NCBI GenBank assembly: GCA_017628025.1
Contig: JAGBZX010000033.1
Location: forward strand, 13,280-77,279
Origin: Kiritimatiellia bacterium
GTDB lineage: Bacteria > Verrucomicrobiota > Kiritimatiellia > RFP12 > UBA1067
Direction: 5' to 3'
DNA length: 64,000 nt
Shown here in pieces: positions 1-16,315 of the stretch. Numbering within the stretch: the first letter of the stretch is position 1; every line of letters begins with the position of its first letter. A program made the position numbers and the translations under genes. The notes beneath the pieces were generated by a model, which did no database searches, was not told the DNA's origin, and saw only the letters and a list, made by a program, of their open reading frames with translations.

Positions 1-51
1 AGTTTTTAACAACAACTGGCAGTTTCTGATCGCGAAAAAAAAGGCTTGCTA

Positions 52-92
52 TGAAAACTGAAAAAACGATGAAGGTCCACTTCATCGTTTTC
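52..92 (-). terminator. Rho-independent terminator downstream of the tRNA-Glu/tRNA-Leu pair
   Basis: 12-bp perfect stem aaaacgatgaag/cttcatcgtttt with a 5-nt loop at 63-91. On the minus strand it is followed by a T-run (revcomp of tgaaaactgaaaaaa). Confidence 0.6.
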
Positions 93-132
93 AGCAACAC
101 TCTCAAAAAAACTCGCATTACATCGGAAAAAT

Positions 133-207
133 TGGCAGCCCCTAGGAGAGTCGAACTCCTCTTGCCTGGATGAGAACCAGATGTCCTAGCCGATAGACGA
201 AGGGGCC
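133..207 (-). tRNA. tRNA-Glu (anticodon CTC)
   Basis: Minus-strand read: GGCCCCTTCGTCTATCGGCTAGGACATCTGGTTCTCATCCAGGCAAGAGGAGTTCGACTCTCCTAGGGGCTGCCA. The acceptor stem is 7 bp (GGCCCCT/AGGGGCT). The anticodon stem TCTGG/CCAGG flanks the loop TTCTCAT. The T-loop is TTCGACT and CCA is encoded. The 5-prime half is close to E. coli tRNA-Glu. Confidence 0.85.
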
Positions 208-217
208 ATTCTTTCTT

Positions 218-303
218 TGGTGCACCTGGGGGGACTCGAACCCTCATGCCTCGCGGCACATGAACCTGAATCATGCGTGTCTGCCATTCCACCCCAGGTG
301 CGC
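218..303 (-). tRNA. tRNA-Leu (anticodon CAG), class II with long variable arm
   Basis: Minus-strand read ends CAGGTGC-A-CCA. The anticodon stem CATGA/TCATG flanks the loop TTCAGGT, giving anticodon CAG. The long variable arm is GTGCCGCGAGGCATG and the T-loop is TTCGAGT. The exact 5-prime end (301 vs 303) is ambiguous. Confidence 0.8.
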
Positions 304-352
304 TACAGTTGAGTATTATATCACAATCAAATCTCAAAAAGCAATAAAAAAA

Positions 353-1066
353 CTAGTATGATCGAAAAATCTCTTCTTCTATATCTTCAGTTAATTTCAT
401 TGCCCCTATTCGATTTACATGTGTGATTTCAGGAGGATCAAGTTTTTTACAAGAAACAAACTTATACAAAACACATTCTTCACCCATATCAAGAATGGAC
501 TGTCCCTTCGCCAAAATTCGTCTGGTCACTTCTATTCTAATAGTAGAGACCTTAGCATTAAGCCTAATTGCTAATTGCGCAGCGCCTCGCTTTAACTTAA
601 GCTTACTACCATCTATGGGGCTTCTAGTTCCTTCAGGGAAAATAAGGATATTTCCACCTTCTGAAAGAATCTTCTTTGCCTCGTCTAAAATTAATTCGTC
701 ATTAGGAAGCATTACATTTCTAACTAACGCACCATAAAAAACATTTCGCTTAAGTTCTGTTTTCGCCACTGAATATACATCTGGTATTAACGCTGTTAGA
801 AGAACTACATCTATTAGCGATGGGTGATTAGCAACAATAACGCAACCTCTTGATTTATCTAAAAGCGAATCATCAATAGCAATAAGTCCAATTTTTTCAA
901 AAAGAAAGACCATTGCCCGCCAAGAACACCTTATTACTCTATGTCCGTCGCTACGCTTCTTACAAAAAGGCAAAACAAAGATAGTTATAAATAAACCACC
1001 TAATGCAAATAGCACAAACAATGCTATTGAAAGCGCACTTCTAGTAACTCGTTTTACGAAACCCAT
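353..1066 (-). CDS. Lysophospholipid (1-acyl-glycerol-3-phosphate-type) acyltransferase; terminal gene of the lipid cluster
   Basis: 237 aa with an N-terminal TM helix. The HX4D acyltransferase motif is present (VANHPSLIDVV), and the FPEGTRS motif is typical of the PlsC/LPLAT family. Confidence 0.75.
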   Translation of the reverse strand: MGFVKRVTRSALSIALFVLFALGGLFITIFVLPFCKKRSDGHRVIRCSWRAMVFLFEKIGLIAIDDSLLDKSRGCVIVANHPSLIDVVLLTALIPDVYSVAKTELKRNVFYGALVRNVMLPNDELILDEAKKILSEGGNILIFPEGTRSPIDGSKLKLKRGAAQLAIRLNAKVSTIRIEVTRRILAKGQSILDMGEECVLYKFVSCKKLDPPEITHVNRIGAMKLTEDIEEEIFRSY

Positions 1067-1644
1067 TTAAGAGATATACGCTTACCTTCTAAGAGAAGAA
1101 TTTCCCCTGCAATAAACTTCGCAATATCTTCGAAGTTTATAGGAGATTTTTCATTGTTGCCAGCAGAAACTTGTAACTTCCTACCCGTAGTAGGGCCAAA
1201 ACGAATCGCTGCTCCATAACCAGATTGAGTCTCTTCAGCGTAACACCAAGCAACACTCTCTGTTTCAAATATTGCTTCAATAAGAGAGTTTTCTATAGTC
1301 TCTTCACCAGCAGCTATCGCAGTGTATGAAGCGTGATTTTTAGCATAAACAGAATAAAGCCCAGGAGAAGCATTATATACTGACGAGCTAAATTTCCAAG
1401 GAGACACTGACCCCTCTTCATTATATGCATGAACTATGTCACTAGTGAGTTTGTCCTCGCCATCACGCGAGGCGAAAACTATTTTTATCTCTTCTCCGAC
1501 TGGAGCTACCTTATTAAGAAGAAAAAAGGAAACCTTCTGCAATAGAGAAAAACGCCTTCGTGTCATTGGAGGAACAAAACTTATATCAAGTTCATCACTT
1601 GAAAATTTAACAAAGGACGCACTAACAAATAAAGTTTTTTTCAT
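1054..1644 (-). CDS. Hypothetical protein, cluster-associated (possibly a degenerate KS-N-terminal-like or accessory protein)
   Basis: 196-aa ORF packed tightly between the acyltransferase and the KS gene, with 4-nt overlaps on both sides. No catalytic motif is recognised. Confidence 0.45.
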   Translation of the reverse strand: MKKTLFVSASFVKFSSDELDISFVPPMTRRRFSLLQKVSFFLLNKVAPVGEEIKIVFASRDGEDKLTSDIVHAYNEEGSVSPWKFSSSVYNASPGLYSVYAKNHASYTAIAAGEETIENSLIEAIFETESVAWCYAEETQSGYGAAIRFGPTTGRKLQVSAGNNEKSPINFEDIAKFIAGEILLLEGKRISLKWVS

Positions 1645-2861
1645 ACACGCTTGAATAAAAGTGAAGTATTTACACCACCAAAAGCAAAATTATTAGAACA
1701 GATATATTCTGTTTCAAATGTTCTACCTTCTCCCATAATAAAATCATGTCCCATGCACTCCGGATCAGGATTAACAAGATTTAAATTTGGAGCAAACCAA
1801 TTATTTCTCATCATATTGATCGCCATCACTGCCTCAATTGAGCCGCACGCACCAAGAGTATGACCAGTATAATTTTTAATAGTACTCAACGGTATATTTG
1901 TTCCATATATTTGTGCTGTCGCCTTTGATTCGGCAACATCGCCAATATCTGTAGCTGTTCCATGCGCATTTATATATCCTATCGCTTCAGGGCTAAGCTT
2001 TGCATCATCTAGTGCATATTTCATCGCCAACGCCATCGTCTCGTAATTGGGCTGTGTCACGTGCCTGCCATCAGTATTGGTACCAAACCCAACAACTTCA
2101 GCCAAAATATTAGCTCCTCTAGATATTGCCCTTTCTCGCTCTTCTAAAATTAAGGTAGCCGCTCCCTCTCCTATTACTAAACCATCGCGATCTTTATCAA
2201 AAGCTCTCGGCGTTGCTTCTGGTAAAGAATTCTGCGTGCTTGTTGCAAATAATGTATCAAAAACTGCAGCTTGTGTAGGACTAAATTCCTCTGCTCCACC
2301 AGCTATCATAACATCCTGCTTGCCATACTTTATTAATTCATATGCATTACCTATAGCAAGCGACCCCGAAGTACACGCCGTTCCTGTAGGAACTATACGA
2401 CCAGTAGTTCCAAAATGAACGGAGAGATTAACGCACGTAGTTTGAGGCATCATCTTAATATACGTCGAACTAGTGACATTTTTAACCTCTTTTGAATAAA
2501 TAATAGTATAAAAATCGGCAACAGCACCAACACTTCCAGATGATGACCCATACGCAACGCCCGCACGACCATTCTTTAAAACTTCGTCCCCTTCTAGCCC
2601 TGCCGCTTTTATCGCCTGCTCCGTTGCGTCAAGTGCCATAATAGAAACCGGGCCCATCGTCCGCGTCACTTTGCGATTATACTTATCATTCTTTACATAA
2701 TTTGCCGGTGCATATAGACGAGTTTGAAGCCCCTTATACTCCGAAAGCTCTTCTGATACTTTTACGCAATTCTTTAAGTCTTTTAATCGTTCAAAAGCGC
2801 TTTCAAATGAATGACCTAAAGAGCTAATAATACCAGCGCCCGTAACAACAACTCTTCTCAT
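1641..2861 (-). CDS. Beta-ketoacyl-ACP synthase (KAS I/II-like, Cys-His-His triad)
   Basis: Active-site Cys in GTACTSGS; catalytic His in NAHGTAT and YTGHTLGACG. The start is probably MRRVVVTGAG (2861), right after the FabG-like stop. The ORF itself extends to 2879. Confidence 0.8.
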   Translation of the reverse strand: MRRVVVTGAGIISSLGHSFESAFERLKDLKNCVKVSEELSEYKGLQTRLYAPANYVKNDKYNRKVTRTMGPVSIMALDATEQAIKAAGLEGDEVLKNGRAGVAYGSSSGSVGAVADFYTIIYSKEVKNVTSSTYIKMMPQTTCVNLSVHFGTTGRIVPTGTACTSGSLAIGNAYELIKYGKQDVMIAGGAEEFSPTQAAVFDTLFATSTQNSLPEATPRAFDKDRDGLVIGEGAATLILEERERAISRGANILAEVVGFGTNTDGRHVTQPNYETMALAMKYALDDAKLSPEAIGYINAHGTATDIGDVAESKATAQIYGTNIPLSTIKNYTGHTLGACGSIEAVMAINMMRNNWFAPNLNLVNPDPECMGHDFIMGEGRTFETEYICSNNFAFGGVNTSLLFKRV

Positions 2862-2862
2862 A

Positions 2863-3537
2863 TTAGAACATCCCCCCATTTATGGAAATTACCTGACGCG
2901 TCAGATAACCTGCCTCCTCAGATACTAAGTATGACACTAGTGCGGCAACCTCTTCTGATTTACCAAATCTTCTCATAGGTATAGCTTTTTTTACTTCTTC
3001 TACTGGCATATCTTTAATCATATCAGTTTCAATTACACCAGGAGCAACAGCATTTACTGTTATGCCACGTTTTGCCAGTTCCACAGCTAATGCCTTAACC
3101 GCGCCGATTACTCCTGCTTTTGCCGCAGAGTAATTTACCTGTCCCCTATTGCCTACAACTCCAGAGATAGAAGAAAGAGCTATTATCCTCCCTTTTATCC
3201 TTGATGATATCATTGGCATTATTATCGGCTTAAGAACATTATAAAAGCCATCCAAATCGGTTCTTAAAACATTATCCCACTGTTCGTCTTCAAGTGCAGG
3301 AAATGGATTATCTGACGCTATTCCCGCATTAAGCACTACCCCATAATATGGACCATTTGCAGCAATATCAGCGTCTATAACACGCCTACATTCCTCTCGA
3401 TTTGCAATATCGAACTTTAAATCTGTTCCTTCAGACTTAAATGAATGCGTAACTACTTCATAGCCTTCGTCTTTTAGGCGTTGAGCGATTGCCTTGCCAA
3501 TTCCACGACTTGCCCCGGTTACTAATATTCGCTTCAT
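2863..3537 (-). CDS. 3-oxoacyl-ACP reductase (SDR family, FabG-like)
   Basis: 224 aa. The Rossmann motif is VTGASRGIGKAIA. NAG is present, along with a Ser-Tyr-Lys catalytic pattern (SAAKAG). Confidence 0.85.
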   Translation of the reverse strand: MKRILVTGASRGIGKAIAQRLKDEGYEVVTHSFKSEGTDLKFDIANREECRRVIDADIAANGPYYGVVLNAGIASDNPFPALEDEQWDNVLRTDLDGFYNVLKPIIMPMISSRIKGRIIALSSISGVVGNRGQVNYSAAKAGVIGAVKALAVELAKRGITVNAVAPGVIETDMIKDMPVEEVKKAIPMRRFGKSEEVAALVSYLVSEEAGYLTRQVISINGGMF

Positions 3538-5099
3538 ACATTTGCCCCTTCCTTGAAATTTTGCACGTCTTCACTTTCTGGCTCAAAAGCATTAAGCCGC
3601 CCCTCCGCTACGACATTATCTAAACTATCGGTGATTTTAACATCAAATGACGCAAATGAGCCATCAGTGAAGTCTAATTTAACGTCAACTCTGTAGCGCC
3701 TAGCATTTTCAATCTTTTCTATATAAGTTTTTATGGAACGAGTTCCAAGAACAAAGCCTATCCTGGGCCCTAAACGCATATTTCTTCGCTTAAGTCCTAC
3801 TAAAGCAGCCATAGTTTGCGCCATATACTCTAAAGCAAAAACACTTGGAACTCCGCAAAGTGATTCATCAAAGAACGGTGAATCTTTCGTGATTTCTACA
3901 AATGCCGTAAGCGACTCTTCTGTAAGACTTGAAGGATCTATTGCCGAAAGAAGAACCATTGGCGGATCATGTGGCAAAATATCACAGGGACGCGCAGGAC
4001 CTATAATTATACTTGCGTTACTACCACCAAATGCAAATGAGTTAGACAACACTGGCCCAGGATGAAATACATCATCAACCTTTGCCAAACGCAATTTCGG
4101 CAGTTCAGCATCAACGTTGCCCGCAAGAGGATGGGGTAATGCCTTATTACCATTTATTAGCATAAGATAACAAAGCGCCGTCTCTAATGCTCCAGCTGCA
4201 CCTAAGCCATGTCCTATCATGGGCTTCGATGACGAACAAAGCGGCCCATCTCCAAATACACGCCAAACAGCCATCGACTCCATTCTGTCATTTTGAATAG
4301 TCCCTGTGCCGTGCAAATTAAGATAAACTTTATCCTTTGAGTCCAACGAAGCATCAGCTAAAGCTAAACGCATTGAAGCCTCCGCTCCATTCCCTTCCGG
4401 ATGAGGCGCAGTAAGGTGATATGCGTCAGAACTTTCTCCTATGCCTAGCAATGCTATTGCACCTCTATTTTTTTCTAACGTAAAAAAAGCAGCTCCTTCT
4501 CCTAAGTTAATACCTTCGCGCCCTTCACCCATCGGGGTAGTCAAATTGCGATTAACAACCTCTAACGCATCAAAGCCATTTACAACTACCCTTGAAAAGC
4601 TATCTGCTCCGCCAGCAACAACTGCGTCACAAACTCCGGAATTTATAAGTTTTCTAGCAGTTGCAAAAACCTTCACGCTTGATGAGCATGCTGTTGATAC
4701 AGATAGAGCAGGACCTGATAAATTTAAATATTCTCTCAAGAAAATCGCAGGTGTTGCCATATCAATCTTATCTTGAGCCTTAGTATACTCCTCCATAGTT
4801 GAATTACTAGTACCGACAACAACACCGATACGATTAGCACCGTAAACTTCTTTAAGTTTTTCAACTTCTAAAGTCATATCTTTTACTGCCGCTGCTATCA
4901 ATTGAGCGACTCTAGACGGAAAAGTTTGATCTTTTACATCACATGAGCCAAAGAGTGTGGTCTGTTCTGCCGGCAAAACACCAGAAAGAACTTTCATACC
5001 TGAAACATCACCTACTTGAGCGCGCTTCCATACGGTAGTGGCATCATTACCTAGAGCACACACGATGCCCATCGCAGTTAGCCCGATATACTCACCCAT
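3534..5099 (-). CDS. Beta-ketoacyl synthase fused to a C-terminal hot-dog fold (FabA/FabZ-like dehydratase) domain
   Basis: 521 aa. The KS part carries the motifs TACSSSV (Cys), LHGTGT and IGHGLGAAG (His). The last ~130 aa form a hot-dog-like domain. Confidence 0.75.
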   Translation of the reverse strand: MGEYIGLTAMGIVCALGNDATTVWKRAQVGDVSGMKVLSGVLPAEQTTLFGSCDVKDQTFPSRVAQLIAAAVKDMTLEVEKLKEVYGANRIGVVVGTSNSTMEEYTKAQDKIDMATPAIFLREYLNLSGPALSVSTACSSSVKVFATARKLINSGVCDAVVAGGADSFSRVVVNGFDALEVVNRNLTTPMGEGREGINLGEGAAFFTLEKNRGAIALLGIGESSDAYHLTAPHPEGNGAEASMRLALADASLDSKDKVYLNLHGTGTIQNDRMESMAVWRVFGDGPLCSSSKPMIGHGLGAAGALETALCYLMLINGNKALPHPLAGNVDAELPKLRLAKVDDVFHPGPVLSNSFAFGGSNASIIIGPARPCDILPHDPPMVLLSAIDPSSLTEESLTAFVEITKDSPFFDESLCGVPSVFALEYMAQTMAALVGLKRRNMRLGPRIGFVLGTRSIKTYIEKIENARRYRVDVKLDFTDGSFASFDVKITDSLDNVVAEGRLNAFEPESEDVQNFKEGANV

Positions 5100-8037
5100 T
5101 TTCTTTACCTTTCGTATGCCATTGATACCACTGATCTGGATATACTTTTACTAATCTTTCTAGCTCACTTACATAAACTTCTGCCATATTCTCATATGGC
5201 AAACGCTTTACATAGACTCGATAAGAATCCTTTTCCTTAAGCGCCGCTACAAAATAAACATTACGCTCAAGATGTTTTGCAAATCTAAAAGCTCCTTCAG
5301 GGAATGAACGCTTTGAACCTAAAAACTCATACTCTTTACTTCTACCATTTCCGCGATCGCCCGCTATTAAAACAACCCCACCCTCATCAACTATAGATAA
5401 ACCTAAAAACAACTCAGCTATACCAAAGCCTTCTGTTGGATGTACCTCTATCATGGTGCGCTTTGAATGGCGATCTTTAAAAGCCCTAAAGGTTGCTGTT
5501 CTTGAAAGTGACATAAAAACATGAAATTTAACCTTACACTCCCCATAAGCGGCTATTGCTTCTGTATTACCTAGATGAGAAGAGATAACTACCGCACCTT
5601 TCTCTTTTTCAATATCTTCTAAAAAAGTACGAGTATCATCATTTTCTTCAAACACGATTTTCGGCTGTCCCTTCCCCATTGATAAAACAGCTATTTTATC
5701 TGCGAGAGAAAGCGCGAAGTTAATCATTTTTTGACGAGAGAAGGACGCCTTTCTTGCAACAGGATCAAATATCCAAACGACGTTTGCAACAACACGAGCT
5801 ATAAAATCAAATAATCCCTTACCAAATATACTATAGAGCATCCATGCAATCTCCATCCCTAATGGCGTTGATGCCCGCTCAGTCTTATCGACTTTAGGTT
5901 TAAAAATCGCCCACGCAACTAAATACGAAACAGGCAATCCCACTGCAAAAGCAGTACCAAAAGAGCGTATTATTGGAAAAGAGACAAAAGAAAGAGCCCC
6001 GAACCCAACCAAACTAGTTAAAAACGAACACGTGACACTCTTTAACGCACCACGAAAATCAGATGATAAAAAAATCGTATAATCAAGAGCCATGCCTACT
6101 ATCATAAATGAAGCTAGTACATGAAAAAAATTGACATTGCCATGTGTTAATTGTTCAAAGGCAAAAACTGAACAAACGGCAAAAATTGAAGGTGTTAAAA
6201 TTAATGCAACTCGCTTACGGTAACTAATTCCCAACAAGAAAAACAACAACACAAAAGAAAGAGTTAACAAATGTGCCGCTCGCTTCTCATGTGTATTTAT
6301 GAGGCTAGCAATCATTTCCCGTGGTGCATAAATCGAGACACCTTTAGTAGCTGATGTAATATTTTTAGCATCTTCTATTGAGACATTAGGGACTATACTC
6401 ATTACTGAATTAGAGCCATCTGTGAACAAAAACCGTTGTGCAATTTGCGGAGGAATATCTTTTTCTTTTATTTCCTTAGGCTGAAGCGTATGGGGCAACT
6501 CAAAAAAACCTATTGATTTCAATAGCGTCGCACCTTCTTGAGATGAACAATCTTTTATAATTACATAATTTGATATTCTTTTCTTAAAAGAAGGCAAAAA
6601 CTTAGATAGACACACAGAGGTTTTGAAAACTTGTTCTTCTCTTTGAAGAACCTCTTCAAGCGTCCCTCCAGAAACAACTGCCATACCAGCACTTTTATTT
6701 ATTTGACTTAATTCTGCAATCATCCTTTCAGATTGCATCAACTTCTTAGATGGCTTATGTAAATCTTCTGCCCCAGTATGGAAATTTGAAAAAATCAATC
6801 CAAAACTAGAAAACAACGCTATAACAGGAACAATAAAACTAGTCGCTAAAGAACCTTCTAATTTAATCATCCATTTTGGAGGATTATGTGTCTTAACTTT
6901 TTCCGAGCGTAATACTCCACAAGAAAGAAGTGTTAAACTAAAAATAAGGCTCGAGAAAAGACCAGCCGTTAAAAAAATAGCCGTTTGAACTAACGCAGAC
7001 AAACTGGAAAAAGCCAAAGGCAATAGGCTTACGATTGTAGTCAAAAATGACTTTATAAGATTCTTCTTAACAATCACCTCATTGCCTTTTATTGCTAACA
7101 ATGCATGGAAAGAATAGTCCACTGCTAATCCTATAAGTGTTGTACCAAAAACCAAAGCCATTAAATGAATTGAATCAAAAAAGAGGCAAACAGCCGCAAA
7201 GCCTACTGAGGCAGAAACAGCAAGATTGAGTAAAATGGCTAGGATAGATTTTAATGAGGAAATAACCCTTAACGCCAATATAACAATAAAAGCAAGCGAA
7301 AATAAAGAAAGTAAAGTTATCTCTCTTTCGCACTTTGAAGAAGTTTCTAAAGTGTGTAAACTTACACCAGAAATTGAAAGCGTTGCATCTTTAGATGAAT
7401 TATTAAGCCTATCACACGAAAGAAGAATTGGATTCAAGATATTGGGCAGTTTCTTAATATCAAAGACCGATGCTTTTGGTAATGAAAATGAAATTAACAC
7501 ATGATAAAGCCCATCTGCTTTAGCACAAAGAAAATCATCTTTTAATTTCCAACTACCAAACCCTCGTGGAAGAGTTTTTACGAATCTATCAATAAAGCCT
7601 AATGAATCATCTTTTTGAAAAACAAGCTTGTACGAAGAAAACAAATCTCGCCTAACTTGATTTACTAAATTACTAGTTAAATAAAGCTCTTTATCCTTTG
7701 GAGAAAGAAATCCACCTCCCGCTTGAGAGTAAAAACTAATTATTTCTTTAAACTCTAGATTAGATGTCTTAAAAACAATGTTTTCGATTACATTAGTATC
7801 AAGTTGCGAAACGAAATTCTCGGCCAATTCTTGAGCCGCCTCAAATGTTTTGGACGATGAAATTACTTGCACTCGAGACGAGACAGCATTTTTTATTGGA
7901 TCTGGAAGCGATAAGCCATTAGCCCCGGCAAGACGCTCTAAAGACGTTTCAAAGCGCCTCTCTTTTGCTAAATAAACCGCTGCTGCCAATGCAAAAGCAG
8001 CAATCACAAAGAAAACTAAACTTATCAAACGCTTCAT
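5092..8037 (-). CDS. MMPL/RND-family membrane exporter fused to a C-terminal LpxL/HtrB-like lipid acyltransferase domain
   Basis: 981 aa. The N-terminal ~700 aa contains many TM segments and an MMPL-like GLAVDYSFH motif. The C-terminal ~250 aa carries an HX4D-type motif (SSHLGNTE) and ends QWYQWH, like LpxL-family acyltransferases. Confidence 0.65.
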   Translation of the reverse strand: MKRLISLVFFVIAAFALAAAVYLAKERRFETSLERLAGANGLSLPDPIKNAVSSRVQVISSSKTFEAAQELAENFVSQLDTNVIENIVFKTSNLEFKEIISFYSQAGGGFLSPKDKELYLTSNLVNQVRRDLFSSYKLVFQKDDSLGFIDRFVKTLPRGFGSWKLKDDFLCAKADGLYHVLISFSLPKASVFDIKKLPNILNPILLSCDRLNNSSKDATLSISGVSLHTLETSSKCEREITLLSLFSLAFIVILALRVISSLKSILAILLNLAVSASVGFAAVCLFFDSIHLMALVFGTTLIGLAVDYSFHALLAIKGNEVIVKKNLIKSFLTTIVSLLPLAFSSLSALVQTAIFLTAGLFSSLIFSLTLLSCGVLRSEKVKTHNPPKWMIKLEGSLATSFIVPVIALFSSFGLIFSNFHTGAEDLHKPSKKLMQSERMIAELSQINKSAGMAVVSGGTLEEVLQREEQVFKTSVCLSKFLPSFKKRISNYVIIKDCSSQEGATLLKSIGFFELPHTLQPKEIKEKDIPPQIAQRFLFTDGSNSVMSIVPNVSIEDAKNITSATKGVSIYAPREMIASLINTHEKRAAHLLTLSFVLLFFLLGISYRKRVALILTPSIFAVCSVFAFEQLTHGNVNFFHVLASFMIVGMALDYTIFLSSDFRGALKSVTCSFLTSLVGFGALSFVSFPIIRSFGTAFAVGLPVSYLVAWAIFKPKVDKTERASTPLGMEIAWMLYSIFGKGLFDFIARVVANVVWIFDPVARKASFSRQKMINFALSLADKIAVLSMGKGQPKIVFEENDDTRTFLEDIEKEKGAVVISSHLGNTEAIAAYGECKVKFHVFMSLSRTATFRAFKDRHSKRTMIEVHPTEGFGIAELFLGLSIVDEGGVVLIAGDRGNGRSKEYEFLGSKRSFPEGAFRFAKHLERNVYFVAALKEKDSYRVYVKRLPYENMAEVYVSELERLVKVYPDQWYQWHTKGKENG

Positions 8038-8645
8038 TTACTACCTTTCGCAGGCAAAGAAGCAAAAACTTCTTTAAAAGTATAATGAGCTTTCTCTCCA
8101 GACGAAAAATAAAAAACAACCTCATTTAATGTCGCACTTCCCGTAAGTTCTAAGAATTTTATCAGTTGGCGCATATCCCGTCTTTTAGGCTCTAGCCTTA
8201 CACGCCATTGATTAGTACTTAAATTAGATGCTTCAATCTTGAAAAGCTTTTCAAATCTGACATCCTTACCTGATGCAAATTCATCAATTGCTTTTGTAAT
8301 TTCTTCATAATGCGGCATTTCCGATGATGGAACAACACGCTCACCATCTTCGCCAAAAAAACGCATTTCCTTCCCTTTCATTGAAATACCAGACACGAAA
8401 GGCTTTTGCATTTGCCAAAAAATACCTTGTCCTTTGAAGCATTTAACAATACCTGACGAAGAGATTCTAATAGGCGTTCCTTCAATTGTCTTTTCCATAG
8501 TCCATGTAGCAGAAGAATCTAGAGCTCTGCGAAGAGCCAACTCAAAATGCTCTCGACTATTCGCAAAAGACTGTATGACAGACAAAAAGAAAGATATCAT
8601 CACAAGCGTGAACTTAATGAACAATCTAGAAGCCTTAAAAGTTAG
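8034..8645 (-). CDS. LolA-like outer-membrane lipoprotein carrier family protein (cluster-associated)
   Basis: The N-terminal signal peptide is MLTFKASRLFIKFTLVMISFFLSVIQSFA. Size (~200 aa) and position match LolA-like genes of polyene lipid clusters. The ORF extends to 8681; 8645 is the more plausible start. Confidence 0.55.
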   Translation of the reverse strand, partial: LTFKASRLFIKFTLVMISFFLSVIQSFANSREHFELALRRALDSSATWTMEKTIEGTPIRISSSGIVKCFKGQGIFWQMQKPFVSGISMKGKEMRFFGEDGERVVPSSEMPHYEEITKAIDEFASGKDVRFEKLFKIEASNLSTNQWRVRLEPKRRDMRQLIKFLELTGSATLNEVVFYFSSGEKAHYTFKEVFASLPAKGSK

Positions 8646-9954
8646 CATAACGAAATTCTCCAGATGTACAAATTTCATCACTACACTTTATTGAGAAAGA
8701 AAACTTACCTTCATCCTTTCTTGATATCTCTAGCTTTAGTGACTCACGAGGCTGAATTGGACGTTGAAATTTAAGCCTTGCTATTTCGCCAGAGAAAATT
8801 GGCATATGCCAAGAGCGACGTATACAACGCTCAACATAGTCTAGCTGAACAACGCCTGGAAGTATTTTAAATGAATTAAAATGACCTTCAAAGTAAAATG
8901 CATCAGGTATAAATGTAATATTAGATGTATAAGATGAATCTAGTAATGTTTCGTTTTCTGATACAGGCTCTTGATAGCGCGACTTAAGAATAGGTGCAAT
9001 TGTTGAGTGTGGCAGTTTACCTTGCTCATTATAATCAAACTGATTAACAAAACGAATCCTTCGCGGGAAAGCATATGACTTAATCGTTTTTAGTTTTTTC
9101 AACTCCGTTATTATAGCAGAGTAAGAAGATGATTTTAATTTAGCCTTCCCTAGTGCATTAAGCTTAACTAAAGCTCTTATTCTAGGCACTGCCTCATCTG
9201 AAGCGATTGCATGCGCCTTAGCAACAAGAGGATGTTCTTCTAAAGAATCTTCTATCTCAGACAAAGAAACATAACGTTCAAGTATTTTTACTTTTCGATC
9301 AATTCTTCCTAGAAGCAAAAACGTATTAGGCGATGTAAACTTTGCGGCATCTCCCATTTTAAAAGGCCTTGTTACTGAAAATTCTGAATCTACCTCTATA
9401 ACACCTTCGTTATTTGCTTTTGCTTGAACACCATCGAACACACGCCAGTGTTCACCATTGGATCTGCGCCGCCATGCAACAGACCCCGTTTCTGTGCTTC
9501 CGAAAATCTCTGTAACTGCAATCCCCACTTCGTTCTGTATTCTAAAGGCTAACTCTTCTTTAAGAAGGCTGCCTGATGTAACAATACCAACCAGAATATT
9601 TTTAAGAAGCTTAAATTCTTCTCTTTGAATAGCTTTCTCTAGAAACGAAGGCGTAGTTACTAGTAGAATTTTCTCCTTGTTTTGTGAAGCAAACAAAAGT
9701 TCTTCTACTGAAAGTATCGTCTCTTCATGAACTAAACATCCTGCAAATAAGGGCACCCTTACTTTCCATAATGCTCCATACATATGCTCAGAACGAATTG
9801 TCGTAACAACATAAGGCTTAGTATCAAACAAGTCTGGTAGCGACTTAACAAGCATAGATGCATCAGCATCAAGGGAGATTGCGCTTTTAAGTATCGTTTT
9901 TGAAACACCAGTAGAGCCTGATGTAGAAAACGCAACACTCATTACTTCGCCCAC
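8635..9954 (-). CDS. Adenylate-forming (AMP-binding, acyl-CoA/ACP ligase-like) enzyme fused to a C-terminal FabZ/FabA-like dehydratase
   Basis: 439 aa. The N-terminus has TSGSTGVSKT (AMP-binding core motif) and GSTETG. The C-terminus has FYFEGHF, the hot-dog dehydratase His motif. Confidence 0.65.
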   Translation of the reverse strand: MGEVMSVAFSTSGSTGVSKTILKSAISLDADASMLVKSLPDLFDTKPYVVTTIRSEHMYGALWKVRVPLFAGCLVHEETILSVEELLFASQNKEKILLVTTPSFLEKAIQREEFKLLKNILVGIVTSGSLLKEELAFRIQNEVGIAVTEIFGSTETGSVAWRRRSNGEHWRVFDGVQAKANNEGVIEVDSEFSVTRPFKMGDAAKFTSPNTFLLLGRIDRKVKILERYVSLSEIEDSLEEHPLVAKAHAIASDEAVPRIRALVKLNALGKAKLKSSSYSAIITELKKLKTIKSYAFPRRIRFVNQFDYNEQGKLPHSTIAPILKSRYQEPVSENETLLDSSYTSNITFIPDAFYFEGHFNSFKILPGVVQLDYVERCIRRSWHMPIFSGEIARLKFQRPIQPRESLKLEISRKDEGKFSFSIKCSDEICTSGEFRYANF

Positions 9955-10343
9955 GGCTTAACACCTTTCACCTTACATCTACAAAGCCATTCTCCCGCAA
10001 ACATCATAGCAAACAAAATGTATGCGATTGCACCATTGTAAATAGCCCAAATTTCAAGAGGAGCTATTACTGTTGCCAGAGTTACTAAAAAATGCAAAAA
10101 AAGAAACACAACCCACACACGATTTACTTTGCGACAATATTGCAAACCCTTCTCGTCTAGTATTTCACCACGCTTTCTAGCAATCTTCTCCACAATGGGC
10201 GTTTTAAAGGAAGAAATAAAAAAAATAAAAAACGCAACCCCTGTCACTATCGCAGGATAAAGGCGAAAATAAACATTGCCACGTAGGAAATACACTAACC
10301 AAACAAGTGCAATGGCAGATAACACTTTAAATACGGCCATCAT
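9942..10343 (-). CDS. Small integral membrane protein (cluster-associated, 4 TM)
   Basis: 133 aa, hydrophobic throughout. It occupies the position right after the two ACP genes. Confidence 0.55.
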   Translation of the reverse strand: MMAVFKVLSAIALVWLVYFLRGNVYFRLYPAIVTGVAFFIFFISSFKTPIVEKIARKRGEILDEKGLQYCRKVNRVWVVFLFLHFLVTLATVIAPLEIWAIYNGAIAYILFAMMFAGEWLCRCKVKGVKPWAK

Positions 10344-10354
10344 CGCCGCGATTT

Positions 10355-10612
10355 TTAGCGACCTTGTTCTACCAAGAGTTTTTCAACAACATCGACTATA
10401 TCACCTAAAGTGCGAATCTGCTTAAAATCTTCTGCTTTGACTTTTAAGCCTGTCATCTGTTGTAAACGAACGACCATATCAACAGCATCAATACTGTCTA
10501 AATCTAAATCTTCAAAAAGCTTAGCTTCCGGGACAAGCTTTTCTGATGCTATTTCAAAATCTGAAACTAAAATCTCTTTAATTTTATTTTCTATTTCTTC
10601 TCTTTTCATCAT
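10355..10612 (-). CDS. Acyl carrier protein
   Basis: ~85 aa. The phosphopantetheine attachment motif is DLDSIDAVD. The likely start is MMKREE (10612); the ORF extends to 10645. Confidence 0.8.
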   Translation of the reverse strand: MMKREEIENKIKEILVSDFEIASEKLVPEAKLFEDLDLDSIDAVDMVVRLQQMTGLKVKAEDFKQIRTLGDIVDVVEKLLVEQGR

Positions 10613-10613
10613 T

Positions 10614-10892
10614 TTACTCCAAGTTAATCCCAGCGTTTTCAGCAATAAATGTTGCTAATGAAGCTACACTACGGAAATGCTCTCTATTTTCATCAGCATT
10701 AGTTTTAAATTTTACGGCGTATTTTTTCTTAATTGCCGCGCCAATTTCAAGTGCGTCAATACTGTCTAATCCTACTCCATCGTCACCGAAGAGAGGCGCA
10801 TTAGCATCTATCGCATCAGCAGTAAGCCCTTCAACCTCAACAGAATTAATAATTAAGTTTTTTATCTCGTTCTCAAATTCAACCCTATTCAT
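10614..10892 (-). CDS. Acyl carrier protein
   Basis: 92 aa with a GLDSIDALE motif. It is the first gene of the minus-strand cluster. Confidence 0.8.
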   Translation of the reverse strand: MNRVEFENEIKNLIINSVEVEGLTADAIDANAPLFGDDGVGLDSIDALEIGAAIKKKYAVKFKTNADENREHFRSVASLATFIAENAGINLE

Positions 10893-10929
10893 TATTCTTT
10901 TCCTTTAAATCCTTGTATTTAACTCTACT

Positions 10930-10980
10930 TCTAGAGATTTTATATACGTTTTCGCATCTAAACAACAAAACTTATGTTTC
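10930..10980 (-). promoter_or_regulatory. Putative promoter region of the ACP-led lipid cluster
   Basis: 122-bp AT-rich intergenic region. On the minus strand it contains TTGTTT-N15-TATAAA-like elements, with the RBS AAAGGAAAAG 5 nt before the ACP ATG. Confidence 0.3.
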
Positions 10981-11014
10981 AACGTATTTTATCATATTAT
11001 ACGCATTCATTCAA

Positions 11015-11830
11015 TCAAAGTGTTATATTATCTATTAATCGAGTCTTGCCGGAATATGCCGCTATAAGAACGACATCTCCCTTTTTAGGGTTGGCAACTT
11101 TCTCTAAAGTATCGGCATTTACCGCTTCAATATAATCGACTTTTAGCCCTGACGCTTTTAGCCTCGATGTAAGATGCGAAAACTTTATTGCTTTACTTTT
11201 AAGCAATCGCAACGAACGCGAAATTTCAAGCGCATTTTCTTTCTCTATTTCAGAAAGATATGTATTTCGGCTAGACATTGCTAGCCCAGATTTCTCGCGA
11301 ACAATTGGAGCGACAACAATTTTCACAGGAAAATTCATATCACGAACCATCCTCTTTATAATTGCTGCTTGCTGATAATCCTTTCGACCAAACACCGCCA
11401 CATCTGCTTGAGATATATTAAAGAGCTTTGTAACCACCGTGCAAACGCCTCTAAAATGCCCTGGGCGGCGTGCCCCACACAATCCTACCGAGAGCCTTGT
11501 CTCATCAACATAAACGGAATGATCTTTCTCATACACGTCTTTTGCACTAGGGATATATACCGCAGTCGCTCCTGCTTGGCGGCATTTAGCTAAATCTGCC
11601 TTTTCGTCTCTTGGATATTTTTCAAAATCTTCACCAGGACAAAACTGTGTAGGATTTACAAAGATGCTAACTATAATCTCGTCAGCTTTTAATGTTTTAG
11701 CCTTCTTTATAAGAGATAAATGACCATCATGCAAATAACCCATAGTAGGAACTAATGCAATCTTGGAGCCTTGACGCTTTTTACTTAATACCCATTTCTG
11801 AAGCGCCGCGGAATTTTTGAAAATATTCAT
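11015..11830 (-). CDS. panC: Pantoate--beta-alanine ligase
   Basis: 271 aa. The HIGH-like motif is PTMGYLHDGHLSL. Length and family match are as expected for PanC. Confidence 0.9.
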   Translation of the reverse strand: MNIFKNSAALQKWVLSKKRQGSKIALVPTMGYLHDGHLSLIKKAKTLKADEIIVSIFVNPTQFCPGEDFEKYPRDEKADLAKCRQAGATAVYIPSAKDVYEKDHSVYVDETRLSVGLCGARRPGHFRGVCTVVTKLFNISQADVAVFGRKDYQQAAIIKRMVRDMNFPVKIVVAPIVREKSGLAMSSRNTYLSEIEKENALEISRSLRLLKSKAIKFSHLTSRLKASGLKVDYIEAVNADTLEKVANPKKGDVVLIAAYSGKTRLIDNITL

Positions 11831-12681
11831 TTTCTAATTGATTTTAATAATTCTATTTCTTCTTTGTAACCTTGTAAGTCACAAGGTGTTTCAAGATAAA
11901 ATGGCAAATGGCTTAATCGAGGTGAATTAATTATACGCTCAAATGCTTCTAGTCCTATAAAACCCTTGCCGATTTTTTGATGCCTATCTTTGTGGGCCCC
12001 AAGACTATTCATTGAATCATTGAGATGTATTGCTTTAATACGATTTCGTCCTAACTCTTGTTCAAACGAATCAAGTACCCCATCTAAATTATTTACAATA
12101 TCATTGCCCCCGTCCCAAACATGGCAAGTGTCTAAACAGATAGCCAATTTAACTTCAGGACATTCGCTTTCAACTGCATTAATTATACTACTTAACTCCT
12201 TTGGAGAAGCTCCCAATTCACTACCTTTACCAGCCATTGTTTCTAGTAAAATAGTTGTAGATGGAACCTTACCAAACTTTTTTAGAATTCTTATTAACAT
12301 TGAAGCCACAAGTTCCATGCCCTTCTCTGCGCCCTGACCAACATGTGAACCTGGATGAAAATTATACATTGCTCCTGGTGTAAGTTCTAGCCTCTGCAAA
12401 TCATCAAACATCACAGTCTCAGCAAAATCCCTTACCCTTTGCTCTTGACCAGCACCATTAAGAGTATAAGGCGCATGCGCTAGAATTGGGCCTATGTTAT
12501 TACTAGAAGCATATTCCAGAAACATCTCAACATCACTCTTGTCAATAGGCTTAGCCGCCCCGCCTCGTGGATTTCGAGTAAAGAACTGAAACACATTTGC
12601 ACCTATTGACACAGCTGTCTGTGCCATAGCCATGTATCCTCCTGACGACGATACATGACACCCTATTTTGAATTCTGCCAT
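11827..12681 (-). CDS. nfo: Deoxyribonuclease IV (endonuclease IV, AP endonuclease family 2)
   Basis: 284 aa with a TIM-barrel AP-endonuclease signature (GCHVSSSGG...FTRNPRGG...HAPY). The Nfo-like N-terminus is conserved. Confidence 0.8.
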   Translation of the reverse strand: MAEFKIGCHVSSSGGYMAMAQTAVSIGANVFQFFTRNPRGGAAKPIDKSDVEMFLEYASSNNIGPILAHAPYTLNGAGQEQRVRDFAETVMFDDLQRLELTPGAMYNFHPGSHVGQGAEKGMELVASMLIRILKKFGKVPSTTILLETMAGKGSELGASPKELSSIINAVESECPEVKLAICLDTCHVWDGGNDIVNNLDGVLDSFEQELGRNRIKAIHLNDSMNSLGAHKDRHQKIGKGFIGLEAFERIINSPRLSHLPFYLETPCDLQGYKEEIELLKSIRK

Positions 12682-12684
12682 TTT

Positions 12685-14949
12685 TTAAAGTTTAGAACGT
12701 TGAATTTTACCTGAGACTGTCTTTGGTAACTCGTCACGGAAAACAACTATGCGCGGATACTTATAAGGCGCAGTATGAGACTTAACATACTGTTGAATCT
12801 CTTCTTTAAGTTTTTCTGTACCCTCAACACCCTTAACAAGCTTTATCGTAGCTTTTACTACTTGACCACGGACGGGGTCAGGCGCTGCCGATACACCGCA
12901 CTCTACTACGTAAGGAAGCTCCATTATGACATTTTCAATTTCAAATGGACCAATCCTATAGCCCGAGCTCTTTATTACATCATCAGCCCTACCAACATAA
13001 TGATAGTAATTATCTTCATCCTTCCACGCTAAATCGCATGTATGATACATTCCGCCGCGCCACATCTCAGAAGTCTTCTCTTCATCTTTATAGTAGCCAA
13101 TGAACACTCCTGGGCGAGGATCCTCACGAGGCGTACGGATGACTATTTCGCCATGTTCGCCAGGCGCAACACTATTACCATTTTCATCTACTAGATCAAC
13201 ACCATAATCTGGCACTGGCTTACCCATTGAACCAGGCTTAAGCGCATCACCAAAAAGATTACCTAACGCACAGGTAGTCTCTGTTTGACCAAAGCCTTCA
13301 TATATCTTCAAGCCTGTAGCTCTTTCAAATTGAACAAAGACTTCGGGATTAAGAGCTTCTCCAGCTGTAGTAACGTGGTGAACCGACGAAAAATCATACT
13401 TTGTAATGTCTTCTTTTATGAGCATCCGATACATCGTTGGAGGCGCACAGAATGTCGTAATAGAATACTTTGCAAACATCGGAAGCACCTTATCTGCATG
13501 AAAACGATCAAAGTCATAAACAAAAATCGCCCCTTCACAAAGCCATTGCCCGTAAAGCTTACCCCACATTGCCTTCGCCCAGCCTGTTTCAGAAATGGTA
13601 AAATGCAAACCATCTCGCTCAACCTGATGCCAATATTTGGCTGTTACATAATGACCAAATGGGTACTTATATGAGTGAAGCGCCATCTTGGGATACCCAG
13701 TAGTGCCGCTTGTGAAGAACATAAGCATCGGGTCTGCACCACCAGGAGCGTCGTTAGATCTATTATACTGACAATCAAACGACAAATACTCTTCATCAAA
13801 ATTACGCCAAGTATCTACCTTGCCATTAACCGTCATTTTTATAATGCTTTGCGTAAGGCCTAACTCAACTAATGCCTCATCAGCAAATTTTGTAACTTCA
13901 CCATCTGCGGTGCAGACAAGAGCTTTTACATCTGCAGCCTTTATACGGTAAGTAAAATCATGCGTCAATAGCTGGCTTGTCGCAGGAATAACAACTGCGC
14001 CAATTTTGTGAAGAGCTAGAATTACTGGCCAGAATTGGTAATGGCGCTTCATCACCAGCATCACTTTGTCGCCTCGTTTAATGCCAAGCGAAATAAAATA
14101 ATTAGCAGCTCGAGATGACGCCTGAGAAATATCAGAAAAAGTAAACCTGCGTTCTGTCATGTTATCAGAGACATGTATCATCGCAAGTTTTGTTGGATAC
14201 TCTGAAGCAATTCTATCAATGATATCAAAGGCAAAATTAAAGCGCTCTAGATTGCGATACTTGATATGTTGCAAACATCCACGCTCATCCTCAAGAACAT
14301 CAATATAATCCTCAGCAATAAGATGCTCAGAATCTCTGCGCATAGGCTCGATTTCAAGGCCAAGACGTTGATTTTGTTCGTCTTCTGCCATAATCATCGC
14401 TAGAAACCTACACTTGCGCCCTCCAATCGCCAACATGCCATGAGGCGTAGAACTTTGATAAAAAGCGCTATCGCCTTCATTAAGAATTTCGACATGATCG
14501 CCAATGCGCAACTTCATTGAGCCTTCAAGAACAAGATTGAACTCTTGCCCTGCATGCGTTGTCGTATGAATAGGACGATTTTGAAGGCGTTCATCATACT
14601 GATAAGTTACATAATATGGCGTAGCAAGTCTATTTTTAAACATAGCAGCCATATTTTGGAGCGTAATACCATTTTCGTCAGTAGTTACTAACCCCTGGCC
14701 CTTACGGGTAATCATATAGCCAGATAACTTAGCGCTATGCCCTTCTAGAAGTGCCGTCACATCAACACCTAGAGCTACTGCACATCTATGAAGCACCGTA
14801 AAAGGAGGATCAACTAGACCTGCCTCTAATTTCTCGTATTGGGACGGCTCAATACCAGCCAGCTCTGCCATTTTTGAAATATCAAAGCCAACAATTTCAC
14901 GCATCTCTCGAATGCGCACGCCCATTTCTTTTAGATTCGTCTCTTTCAT
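12685..14949 (-). CDS. Fusion protein: XRE-family HTH + cupin domain + AMP-forming acyl-CoA synthetase (acetyl/medium-chain type)
   Basis: 754 aa. The N-terminal HTH is GVRIREMREIVGFDISKMAELAGI, followed by a cupin fold. The C-terminal ~530 aa is an AMP-binding enzyme (FTSGTTGYPK, GFGQTET, GYYKD, SGKIQR). Confidence 0.75.
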   Translation of the reverse strand: MKETNLKEMGVRIREMREIVGFDISKMAELAGIEPSQYEKLEAGLVDPPFTVLHRCAVALGVDVTALLEGHSAKLSGYMITRKGQGLVTTDENGITLQNMAAMFKNRLATPYYVTYQYDERLQNRPIHTTTHAGQEFNLVLEGSMKLRIGDHVEILNEGDSAFYQSSTPHGMLAIGGRKCRFLAMIMAEDEQNQRLGLEIEPMRRDSEHLIAEDYIDVLEDERGCLQHIKYRNLERFNFAFDIIDRIASEYPTKLAMIHVSDNMTERRFTFSDISQASSRAANYFISLGIKRGDKVMLVMKRHYQFWPVILALHKIGAVVIPATSQLLTHDFTYRIKAADVKALVCTADGEVTKFADEALVELGLTQSIIKMTVNGKVDTWRNFDEEYLSFDCQYNRSNDAPGGADPMLMFFTSGTTGYPKMALHSYKYPFGHYVTAKYWHQVERDGLHFTISETGWAKAMWGKLYGQWLCEGAIFVYDFDRFHADKVLPMFAKYSITTFCAPPTMYRMLIKEDITKYDFSSVHHVTTAGEALNPEVFVQFERATGLKIYEGFGQTETTCALGNLFGDALKPGSMGKPVPDYGVDLVDENGNSVAPGEHGEIVIRTPREDPRPGVFIGYYKDEEKTSEMWRGGMYHTCDLAWKDEDNYYHYVGRADDVIKSSGYRIGPFEIENVIMELPYVVECGVSAAPDPVRGQVVKATIKLVKGVEGTEKLKEEIQQYVKSHTAPYKYPRIVVFRDELPKTVSGKIQRSKL

Positions 14950-15800: not shown

Positions 15801-16315
15801 TTTTTAATCGGGTTATTAAATTGGCAAACAACATCAAATAAAGCTTCTGCAAGGTTTGGATCAACCTCAAAAATATTGTCGTTTTCAGAATACGTCCTAT
15901 TGTTGATATTTGCTTTTACACCTAAAAAGCGCGACATATTTTTCTTTTTAGTTCTTTTAAAGAGTTTCTCTCTATCGAGGAGTCCGCGATTAACTAAATC
16001 TTGGAATAGAGCATTAAGATGCTTAACATCAACATATTGCTCTGAATTTTCGACATCATGCCAATTTTCTGCTTCGTGATTTTTCGCAAAGTCATTAGAA
16101 ACCTGCTCACTAGTCCCTTTAAGAACCTTAACATATCCAGTGCCACTTAAATAAACACTAATACGACGAATAGGACTAGACTTAAGGTTATAATAGTGAA
16201 TGTGGACCCAATTTAGACTACTGTCTTCAACTGTTATATATGGATCCACCCAAAACGGTCCGCATCCAGAAAGAACAAACGCAACTATACCAAGTATTAG
16301 AGTTTTTGCGAACAT
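15797..16315 (-). CDS. Putative lipoprotein, unknown function
   Basis: The signal peptide carries a lipobox-like LSGC. 172 aa with no recognisable domain. Confidence 0.5.
   Translation of the reverse strand: MFAKTLILGIVAFVLSGCGPFWVDPYITVEDSSLNWVHIHYYNLKSSPIRRISVYLSGTGYVKVLKGTSEQVSNDFAKNHEAENWHDVENSEQYVDVKHLNALFQDLVNRGLLDREKLFKRTKKKNMSRFLGVKANINNRTYSENDNIFEVDPNLAEALFDVVCQFNNPIKK

Follow-up and report, generated by a model that had tools for sequence, protein, structure and literature searches.

A compact aryl polyene-type gene cluster with three fused proteins in a Kiritimatiellia bacterium

Genes and domains of the cluster

This study concerns a gene cluster of a Kiritimatiellia bacterium, which lies on the minus strand at positions 353-10892 of a stretch of 64,000 nucleotides (contig JAGBZX010000033.1, positions 13,280 to 77,279; assembly GCA_017628025.1), referred to below as the window. 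The cluster consists of 11 open reading frames (ORFs) read from 10892 down to 353, and between neighbours there is either an overlap of 4-47 nt or a gap of at most 11 nt; such tight packing is what a single, translationally coupled operon would show. The eleven co-directional genes and their limits are exactly those given in an earlier note made from the letters of this DNA; panC and two tRNA genes form the flanks. The note had also placed the cluster in the family of aryl polyene (APE), flexirubin and xanthomonadin clusters and recognised an APE-like gene order, and this was borne out, as APE enzymes are the best matches throughout. Named after these enzymes and with a tilde for a fusion, the gene order is apeE-apeF-apeG-apeH~I-apeL-apeM~(apeJ acyltransferase half)-apeO~P-apeQ-apeR-apeC-apeD, and the region is very probably one operon of a gut Kiritimatiellia bacterium that encodes a streamlined type II polyketide/lipid pathway of the APE type. 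The domain identities derive from sequence and structure matches, and the pathway steps discussed further below are modelled on characterised homologues. The 11 cluster proteins and, with Pfam, 37 further window proteins (11-58 kb) were scanned. The features of the cluster are the following:

10614..10892, minus strand: ACP1, ApeE-type starter acyl carrier protein (ACP), 92 aa
10355..10645, minus strand: ACP2, ApeF-type extender ACP
9942..10343, minus strand: ApeG-like small membrane protein, 133 aa, about four hydrophobic helices
8980..9954, minus strand: ApeH-type adenylating (acyl/aryl-ACP synthetase) domain, residues 1-325 of a 439-aa fusion
8638..8952, minus strand: ApeI-type hot-dog dehydratase half, residues 335-439 of the 439-aa fusion
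8034..8681, minus strand: ApeL, LolA-like periplasmic carrier
5893..8037, minus strand: ApeM-type RND/MMPL exporter domain, residues 1-715 of a 981-aa protein
5095..5880, minus strand: LpxL/LpxM/PatA-type acyltransferase (LPLAT) domain, residues 720-981 of the exporter protein
3996..5099, minus strand: ApeO-type elongating ketosynthase (KS) domain, residues 1-368 of a 521-aa fusion
3537..3980, minus strand: ApeP-type hot-dog dehydratase half, residues 374-521 of the 521-aa fusion
2863..3537, minus strand: ApeQ-type ketoreductase (KR), FabG-type, 224 aa
1641..2879, minus strand: ApeR-type homodimeric KS, 412 aa
1054..1644, minus strand: ApeC-type half-size chain-length factor (CLF), 196 aa
353..1066, minus strand: ApeD-type PlsC-family lysophospholipid acyltransferase, 237 aa

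The domain calls of the earlier note (two ACPs, membrane protein, ligase-dehydratase, exporter-acyltransferase, KS-dehydratase, KR, second KS and PlsC-type protein) hold. ACP1 carries the motif GDDGVGLDSIDALEIG and matches PF00550 at 2.8e-6; its best solved match is 9LS6 (E=8.4e-19), which we take to be the ApeE of Acinetobacter baumannii described in PMC12624758, with the Gly-rich motif and the DSL-type Ser aligned. ACP2 scores 109 bits (9e-32) with the NCBIfam model PRK05350, which has a cutoff of 65. Its ORF is listed from a TTG at 10645, and the ATG at 10612 is the likely true start, giving 85 aa in comparison to the 84-88 aa of its relatives. The adjacent genes of the two carriers show the tandem ApeE/ApeF arrangement of APE clusters.

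The ApeO-type KS keeps the active-site sequence STACSSS and matches the ApeO structures of Xenorhabdus doucetiae (6QSP_A, 7.6e-74) and A. baumannii (7F28_B, 3e-61), with the top FabF-type chains at about 1e-36; it reaches 381 bits with NCBIfam PRK09185, for which the cutoff is 407. The second KS, which also keeps its active-site Cys, exceeds the cutoff of PRK09116 (605 bits, 6.7e-182; cutoff 470) and matches the ApeR homologue of P. phymatum (4EWG, 5.9e-142) and A. baumannii ApeR (7F27, 8.6e-133) far better than FabF (1e-73). From the conserved Cys in both KSs the earlier note had concluded that there was no obvious Cys-less CLF, and it had left one gene as hypothetical. Both statements have to be revised, since this gene encodes the half-size ApeC-type CLF (PF13723 Ketoacyl-synt_2, 4.7e-28), which matches the solved ApeC proteins of A. 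baumannii (7F28_A, 3.2e-7) and X. doucetiae (6QSP_B, 2e-5). By its sequence, the cluster therefore has a Cys-less CLF, and from the ApeO:ApeC homologues this is predicted to pair with the ApeO-type KS. The KR matches 7CZC, 7CAW and 4IIU at 1e-79 to 3e-82, compared with only about 1e-48 for ordinary FabG; 7CZC and 7CAW are presumably the A. baumannii ApeQ structures of PMC8041823. No enoyl reductase domain was found in any of the 11 cluster proteins by family scans. Among the relatives, the locus L007 (6464-9243) is without a KR gene between its KS~ApeP and ApeR genes, and the cluster of the metagenome-assembled genome (MAG) RUI187 (L001, 12931-14915; same contig as L020) stops after the ApeO-type KS and is without KR, ApeR, ApeC and ApeD.

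The ligase half of the 439-aa protein has TIGR02372, 4-coumarate ligase, as its best NCBIfam match (1.8e-26), and its AMP-binding match covers profile positions 170-333 only, as the Kiritimatiellia ApeH-type ligase begins directly at the P-loop (STSGSTG). The P-loop, GSTE, GD, GRxDxxxK and C-terminal Lys motifs are invariant (alignment A3), and the full-length protein is 27-32% identical to the ApeH~ApeI proteins of Aggregatibacter and Melainabacteria clusters. An AlphaFold2 (AF2) model of the ligase has a predicted local distance difference test score (pLDDT) of 89, and its Foldseek matches are ANL ligases, including benzoate- and anthranilate-CoA ligases and 4GS5, a short ligase of 350 aa from the Bacteroidetes genus Dyadobacter; the shortened ligase is thus predicted to fold still as an ANL enzyme. 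It was considered whether the small membrane protein represents the lost N-terminus of the ligase, and this was rejected, since separate homologues exist in clusters with full-length ligases.

The second half of this protein is an ApeI-like dehydratase domain (PF22818, 3.4e-6) with solved matches 3ESI (6.9e-8) and 6QSR_A (2.9e-5) and a GHF motif whose histidine, H358, is invariant. Its counterpart at the C-terminus of the KS fusion matches PF22817 ApeP-like (5.8e-13) and the ApeP of X. doucetiae (6QSR_B, 4.3e-10); it carries the Glu motif ALEYMAQ and is without the GHF histidine. The catalytic-type His motif is therefore confined to the ApeI domain and the Glu motif to the ApeP domain, which fits the published single composite active site.

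The ApeG-like protein has no Pfam match, and its phmmer homologues adjoin ACP and ligase genes in the APE clusters of Burkholderia, Pasteurellaceae and Melainabacteria. ApeL has an N-terminal signal-like segment, its one hydrophobic segment (residues 20-38), and a cleavage-like site SFA/NS. The LolA-like call of the earlier note held for it, with weak family support, as NCBIfam LolA2_flexi (2.5e-7, 30 bits, cutoff 125) and LolA (9.4e-6) both score under their cutoffs and the relatives match PF19574 LolA_3 weakly. The exporter domain shows two blocks of hydrophobic segments with long loops between them, as in RND transporters; it matches HpnN TIGR03480 (7e-13) over part of the protein and MMPL weakly, and its profile A1 matches the HpnN structure 5KHN at 1.9e-7. 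The exporter and the LolA-like ORF are homologous to their counterparts in classical APE clusters. The 981-aa exporter fusion is identical to a protein of a Kiritimatiellae MAG, and accession MBO5643280.1 is a member of its sequence cluster at an identity of at least 90%.

The domain that follows the last membrane segment of the exporter comprises about 260 residues and, together with 12 homologues, gives no significant Pfam match (best Lip_A_acyltrans at 0.039, in one member). The earlier description as LpxL-like was nevertheless correct: the profile of the 12 homologues (A2) matches LpxM (5KN7) at 4.8e-6 with the catalytic H-x4-E aligned and invariant (SHLGNTE, H821/E826), the AF2 model (pLDDT 86) matches LpxM (6e-11) and PatA (2e-10) in Foldseek, with a range of 6e-11 to 3e-9 for both, and phmmer finds the acyltransferase that the APE clusters of Burkholderia and Pasteurellaceae encode as a separate gene. 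In Aggregatibacter this separate protein belongs to PF03279 (1.9e-14) and its gene adjoins a GT2 glycosyltransferase gene, representing a split ApeJ; the C-terminal domain of the exporter thus corresponds to the acyltransferase half of ApeJ. It has the fold and the catalytic HX4(D/E) motif in common with LpxL/LpxM and PatA, but is only about 15% identical to them, is fused to an RND exporter and is encoded in a polyketide-lipid operon. By analogy, lipid A is an unlikely acceptor, because ApeJ acylates an N-acetylgalactosamine (GalNAc)-phosphoglycerolipid (bioRxiv 10.1101/2020.12.19.423268). The last protein, of the ApeD type, matches PF01553 (6e-16) and, under the cutoff, TIGR00530 (1.4e-17), and its gene adjoins the CLF gene as a gene of the same family does in classical clusters.

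The FabF-like, FabG-like, hot-dog, LpxL-like and PlsC-like domains and the ACPs share superfamilies with the enzymes of type II fatty acid synthesis (FAS II) and of lipid A, so that a housekeeping or lipid-A-related fatty-acid operon, with fusions that arose through misassembly or frameshifts in a metagenome bin, was also considered. This is hardly conceivable. The fabF model TIGR03150 gives 337 bits with the 412-aa KS and 181 bits with the other (cutoff 494), and the FabB model 296 bits with a cluster KS (cutoff 630). By their structure matches, both KSs are far nearer to ApeO and ApeR than to FabF and FabB. APE structures are the best matches for the KSs, CLF, KR, ACP1 and both dehydratase halves, the fused domains match the ApeI, ApeP, ApeM and ApeJ-type acyltransferase families, and the cluster is without FabD, FabH, FabI and a homodimeric FabZ. 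The check which the earlier note had set against its own reading, namely KSs of the housekeeping type together with fusion proteins unrelated to APE families, thus did not refute it. In addition, all three fused ORFs recur in independently assembled relatives at 57-79% identity, and fused forms occur in many sequence clusters, so the fusions seen in the earlier note are real and not assembly artefacts. Housekeeping FAS II is therefore excluded.

The three fusions and their distribution

The earlier note had regarded all three fusions as unusual and their parts as separate genes in known clusters. For the ligase and dehydratase this does not apply. An ApeI fused to ApeH has been biochemically characterised in A. 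baumannii (PMC8041823), the ApeI-like domain is present in all 120 homologues listed and the AMP-binding domain in nearly all, and ligase and ApeI share one reading frame in 74 of the 80 loci fetched from GTDB, a proportion which is biased upward by the use of the fused protein as the query and indicates taxonomic breadth rather than frequency. The taxa concerned include Burkholderia, Paraburkholderia, Aggregatibacter, Haemophilus, Neisseria, Chromobacterium, Fibrobacter, Treponema and Melainabacteria, and the ligase~ApeI fusion is thus not unusual, but the usual state in many APE clusters.

The other two fusions are indeed uncommon. The exporter and acyltransferase are separate ORFs in the classical proteobacterial clusters annotated here and separate in 39 GTDB loci, as opposed to 11 loci with the fusion, 9 of which are labelled Kiritimatiellia, Verrucomicrobia or Lentisphaerae, and the remaining two lie on a contig binned as Alistipes and one binned as Sphaerochaetaceae; about 20 full-length sequence clusters contain the fused form. 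In L040, a Melainabacteria locus, the exporter and acyltransferase genes lie side by side with a 4-nt overlap at the exporter stop, plausibly the arrangement that preceded the fusion. A 1217-aa Chryseobacterium protein annotated as “MMPL family transporter” (P0063) combines MMPL/RND with a PlsC-type domain (PF01553) and matches the window protein weakly (E 6e-4); if it comes from a flexirubin cluster, it would represent a fusion of exporter and acyltransferase in which the acyltransferase is of another family.

ApeO and ApeP are separate proteins in A. baumannii (PMC8041823), in contrast to the fused form of the window, and a KS~ApeP fusion occurs in 0 of the 31 GTDB loci in which both parts are visible. 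It was found in the two nearest relatives, L006 and L007, and, among the 150 nearest 50%-identity clusters, in 12 that are dispersed between unfused KSs. For this scatter a neighbour-joining tree of the ApeO-type KSs was used, which is star-like and without support values and serves no other purpose here. The fusion is thus rare but recurrent. The linker between KS and ApeP comprises about 8 residues in the window protein, and in the unfused relative L002 (Kiritimatiellia-type) the two genes share a frame, with a stop codon and one additional codon between them, which makes the fusion a simple stop-codon loss. No description of an exporter-acyltransferase or KS-dehydratase fusion was found in the literature searched, and the two may have been published elsewhere.

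Overall, the welding of domains is a recurrent theme of the APE family, and further combinations were observed. These include KS~CLF fusions with lengths of 654-676 aa and a single KS~CLF~ApeP fusion of 811 aa (among P0231, P0240, P0293, P0309, P0325 and P0258), as well as a ligase~ApeI~LolA triple fusion of 632-644 aa in L007 (1583-3517, P0071) and in P0076-P0079. The triple fusion keeps the signal-like hydrophobic segment of LolA between the dehydratase and LolA domains; retained in the middle of the protein, this segment would have to act as a membrane anchor joining the cytoplasmic enzyme to the periplasmic carrier. ApeG-like, ligase and ApeI sequences lie in one uninterrupted frame in two Fibrobacter-type loci and one Kiritimatiellia locus (L082, 8969-11305; L087, 8909-11332; L032, 9470-11290), which refers to reading frames only, irrespective of start codons.

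Relation to known clusters and genomic neighbourhood

The features that define the APE core, namely apeO/R, apeE/F, apeC, apeI/P, apeQ and apeM (bioRxiv 10.1101/2020.12.19.423268), are all present. The closest characterised systems are the apeA-R clusters of Escherichia coli CFT073 and X. doucetiae, with which the window shares the ACPs E and F, ApeG, ApeH, a split ApeI/ApeP, ApeO:ApeC, ApeR, ApeQ, ApeD, the LpxL-type acyltransferase (C-terminal half of ApeJ), ApeM, ApeL, the lack of an enoyl reductase and the local gene order E-F-G-H-I ... L-M ... O-P-Q-R (PMC8253772; bioRxiv 10.1101/2020.12.19.423268). Of the lipid-anchoring pair of APE clusters, the PlsC-type and LpxL-type domains are thus retained and the glycosyltransferase half of ApeJ is absent. 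However, the window cluster has 11 genes instead of 18, its H~I, M~J (acyltransferase half) and O~P are fused, its ligase is N-terminally shorter, and its apeC-apeD genes are at the 3' end and not at the 5' end. Apart from the position of apeC-apeD, the order is also the same as in the clusters of Burkholderia, Pasteurellaceae, Fibrobacter and Melainabacteria. Compared with the 18-gene cluster, ApeA, the methyltransferase ApeB, the thioesterase ApeK, the LolB-like ApeN and the ApeJ glycosyltransferase half are absent from the 11 genes; a 4HBT thioesterase is kept in the more distant relatives L002 and L040. The host also differs, being an anaerobic gut bacterium of the PVC group, whereas E. 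coli and X. doucetiae are proteobacteria.

The A. baumannii APE cluster provides the solved structures that are matched by the KS, CLF, KR and ACP proteins of the window. In the APE-like clusters of gut Melainabacteria MAGs (L035, L039, L040, L054), the exporter gene is likewise followed downstream by that of an LpxL-type acyltransferase, with no glycosyltransferase, but exporter and acyltransferase are separate, a 4HBT thioesterase is present, the ligase has its full length (554 aa) and the KS genes are located elsewhere. For Kiritimatiellia, the literature was found to contain only generic antiSMASH counts of “arylpolyene” clusters, which are routinely included in surveys of gut MAGs (PMC10705383, PMC9769736), and a remark from genome mining on APE-type genes in a cultured Kiritimatiellae strain with yellow cultures, Pontiella F1 (PMC7356697).

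The weak similarity of the KR to the flexirubin model FlxB_rubin_SDR (253 bits) and of ApeL to LolA2_flexi, together with the short Dyadobacter ligase among the fold matches, could indicate membership of the flexirubin or xanthomonadin branch and not of the APE branch. This is very improbable, as the two models remain under their cutoffs (340 bits for FlxB_rubin_SDR), DarB reaches only 22 bits against 550, and KS, CLF, dehydratase, KR and ACP all match Xenorhabdus and Acinetobacter APE structures best. The marker genes of flexirubin and xanthomonadin clusters are DarA/DarB, tyrosine ammonia-lyase, a XanB2-type chorismatase and a halogenase. None of these was found in the cluster or its flanks by family scans, and for the chorismatase and the halogenase this holds for all 11 cluster and 37 further window proteins. 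The cluster is accordingly a compact, lineage-specific architectural variant of the APE family, which is very well known and very common in bacteria. The distinct subfamily suggested in the earlier note exists in the architectural sense, as a Kiritimatiellia-type layout, and does not amount to a new biosynthetic class.

The flanks of the cluster are given below, and the remainder of the 64-kb window is ordinary chromosomal housekeeping according to Pfam scans of the window proteins:

11015-11830: panC, upstream flank of the cluster, followed by further housekeeping genes
133-301: tRNA-Leu and tRNA-Glu, downstream flank of the cluster

Scans of positions 1-11900 for promoters and terminators gave no excess over shuffled sequence (28 compared with 29.7 and 8 compared with 8.8), so the only operon signal claimed is the gene packing. 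A signature of horizontal transfer is not claimed either, as the GC content is only slightly low (0.35-0.42), mobility genes are lacking and synteny is kept in L006. All gene-like ORFs of at least 120 aa in the window lie on the minus strand and the GC skew is negative in each 2-kb bin; this extreme co-orientation presumably follows replication. A 754-aa protein (12685-14949, minus strand) combines an XRE-type helix-turn-helix (HTH), a cupin and a full AMP-binding acyl-CoA-synthetase module, and it is kept in L006 (3110-5371), two genes upstream of the cluster. Pantothenate/CoA genes also occur near the ACP-dependent cluster: besides panC there is a type III pantothenate kinase (16297-17058), and in the different genomic context of L001, panB (20092-20868) is located about 6 kb from the homologous cluster. 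This proximity may be a coincidence.

Proposed pathway and product

In characterised APE systems, ApeH loads 4-hydroxybenzoate on ApeE, ApeO:ApeC is the KS:CLF pair and ApeR is a second KS (PMC8253772, PMC8358021, PMC12624758), ApeI and ApeP form a heterodimer with a single active site (PMC8041823), and ApeD and ApeJ attach chains to a glycerol-phosphate-GalNAc anchor, with export of the product by ApeM/G/L/N (bioRxiv 10.1101/2020.12.19.423268). By homology, the ApeH domain of the window would adenylate a carboxylic-acid starter, most likely of the hydroxybenzoate or cinnamate type, and load it onto ACP1. ACP2 would carry malonyl units, for which loading by the housekeeping FabD is proposed because the cluster is without an acyltransferase for this step. 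The chain would be extended by ApeR and the ApeO:ApeC heterodimer, each beta-keto group would be reduced by ApeQ, and dehydration would be carried out by the heterodimeric hot-dog enzyme, whose single site would consist of the His of the ApeI domain and the Glu of the ApeP domain. Since no enoyl reductase is present, a conjugated polyene would result. With ApeI placed on the ligase and ApeP on the KS, formation of the active site should join ligase, dehydratase, KS and CLF in one complex.

At the cytoplasmic face, the PlsC-type ApeD and the LpxL-type domain of the exporter would then esterify the polyene acyl chain or chains to a membrane lipid anchor, and the RND/MMPL exporter ApeM, ApeG and the LolA-like ApeL would move the product toward the outer membrane. 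As the acyltransferase is fused to the exporter, the last acylation should be coupled to export. The lack of the glycosyltransferase half, methyltransferase, thioesterase and LolB-like protein suggests a product simpler than the Xenorhabdus APE lipid, probably with an unmethylated head group and without a GalNAc bridge. More tentatively, the product might be a sugar-free polyene lipid, aryl-capped or not, that is esterified directly to a (lyso)phospholipid by a membrane-tethered megasynthase with exporter-borne final acyl transfer. If so, the megasynthase (ligase~dehydratase : dehydratase~KS : CLF, held together via the composite dehydratase site) would make synthesis, anchoring and export one coupled process, and the sugar-free polyene lipid would be previously undescribed.

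Several points weigh against this pathway as outlined. The ligase is without about 115-125 N-terminal residues that are present in the ApeH homologues of Aggregatibacter and Melainabacteria, so that its substrate or activity may differ, and the LolA-like and MMPL assignments combine sub-threshold family scores with context. No gene for starter supply (chorismate lyase, ammonia-lyase or chorismatase) was found by Pfam in the cluster or among the 37 further proteins, and Kiritimatiellia are anaerobes, which may lack the ubiquinone-linked source of 4-hydroxybenzoate. The identity of the starter is something we infer, as are the megacomplex and the coupling to export, which derive from the fusions. 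The earlier note had rightly listed an ammonia-lyase and a chorismatase as absent. This carries little weight, as the APE cluster of E. coli is also without a starter-supply gene and uses UbiC-derived 4-hydroxybenzoate (PMC8253772).

The same points bear on a second view of the product, in which the APE-type machinery is unchanged and the truncated ligase loads a fatty or other non-aromatic acid, giving a conjugated polyene fatty acyl lipid that would resemble the C26:5 “cFA” moiety of the Xenorhabdus APE lipid. It would agree with the ligase N-terminus, which is shorter than in characterised-type ApeH proteins, with the lack, in cluster and window alike, of a methyltransferase, a thioesterase, a glycosyltransferase or a gene for an aromatic starter, and with the Xenorhabdus cluster, for which a non-aryl conjugated fatty acid made by the same enzymes has been proposed (bioRxiv 10.1101/2020.12.19.423268). 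We nevertheless consider a non-aryl product unlikely, because the Gly-rich motif specific to ApeE is retained in ACP1, which matches ApeE at 8e-19, the best NCBIfam model of the ligase is a 4-coumarate ligase with aryl-acid ligases among its fold matches, and starter-supply genes are missing from the E. coli APE clusters as well (PMC8253772). An aromatic head group is thus favoured by the ApeE-like ACP and the 4-coumarate ligase match, in a question that sequence cannot decide.

The known chemistry and logic of the APE family are unchanged by this cluster. What is still mostly conjecture in the family is the assembly of its enzymes, the lipid anchoring and the export, and here natural fusions serve as interaction maps for the pathway: the fusions ApeO~ApeP and ApeH~ApeI, taken together, imply a single working complex of ligase, dehydratase, KS and CLF, and ApeM~acyltransferase implies an LpxL-type half of ApeJ whose place of action is the exporter and which is able to function when the glycosyltransferase half is missing. 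With its 11 genes, the layout represents a natural minimal set for heterologous reconstitution. For the Kiritimatiellia, there was one earlier hint of APE-type clusters, from a marine isolate (PMC7356697), to which those of animal-gut members are now added.

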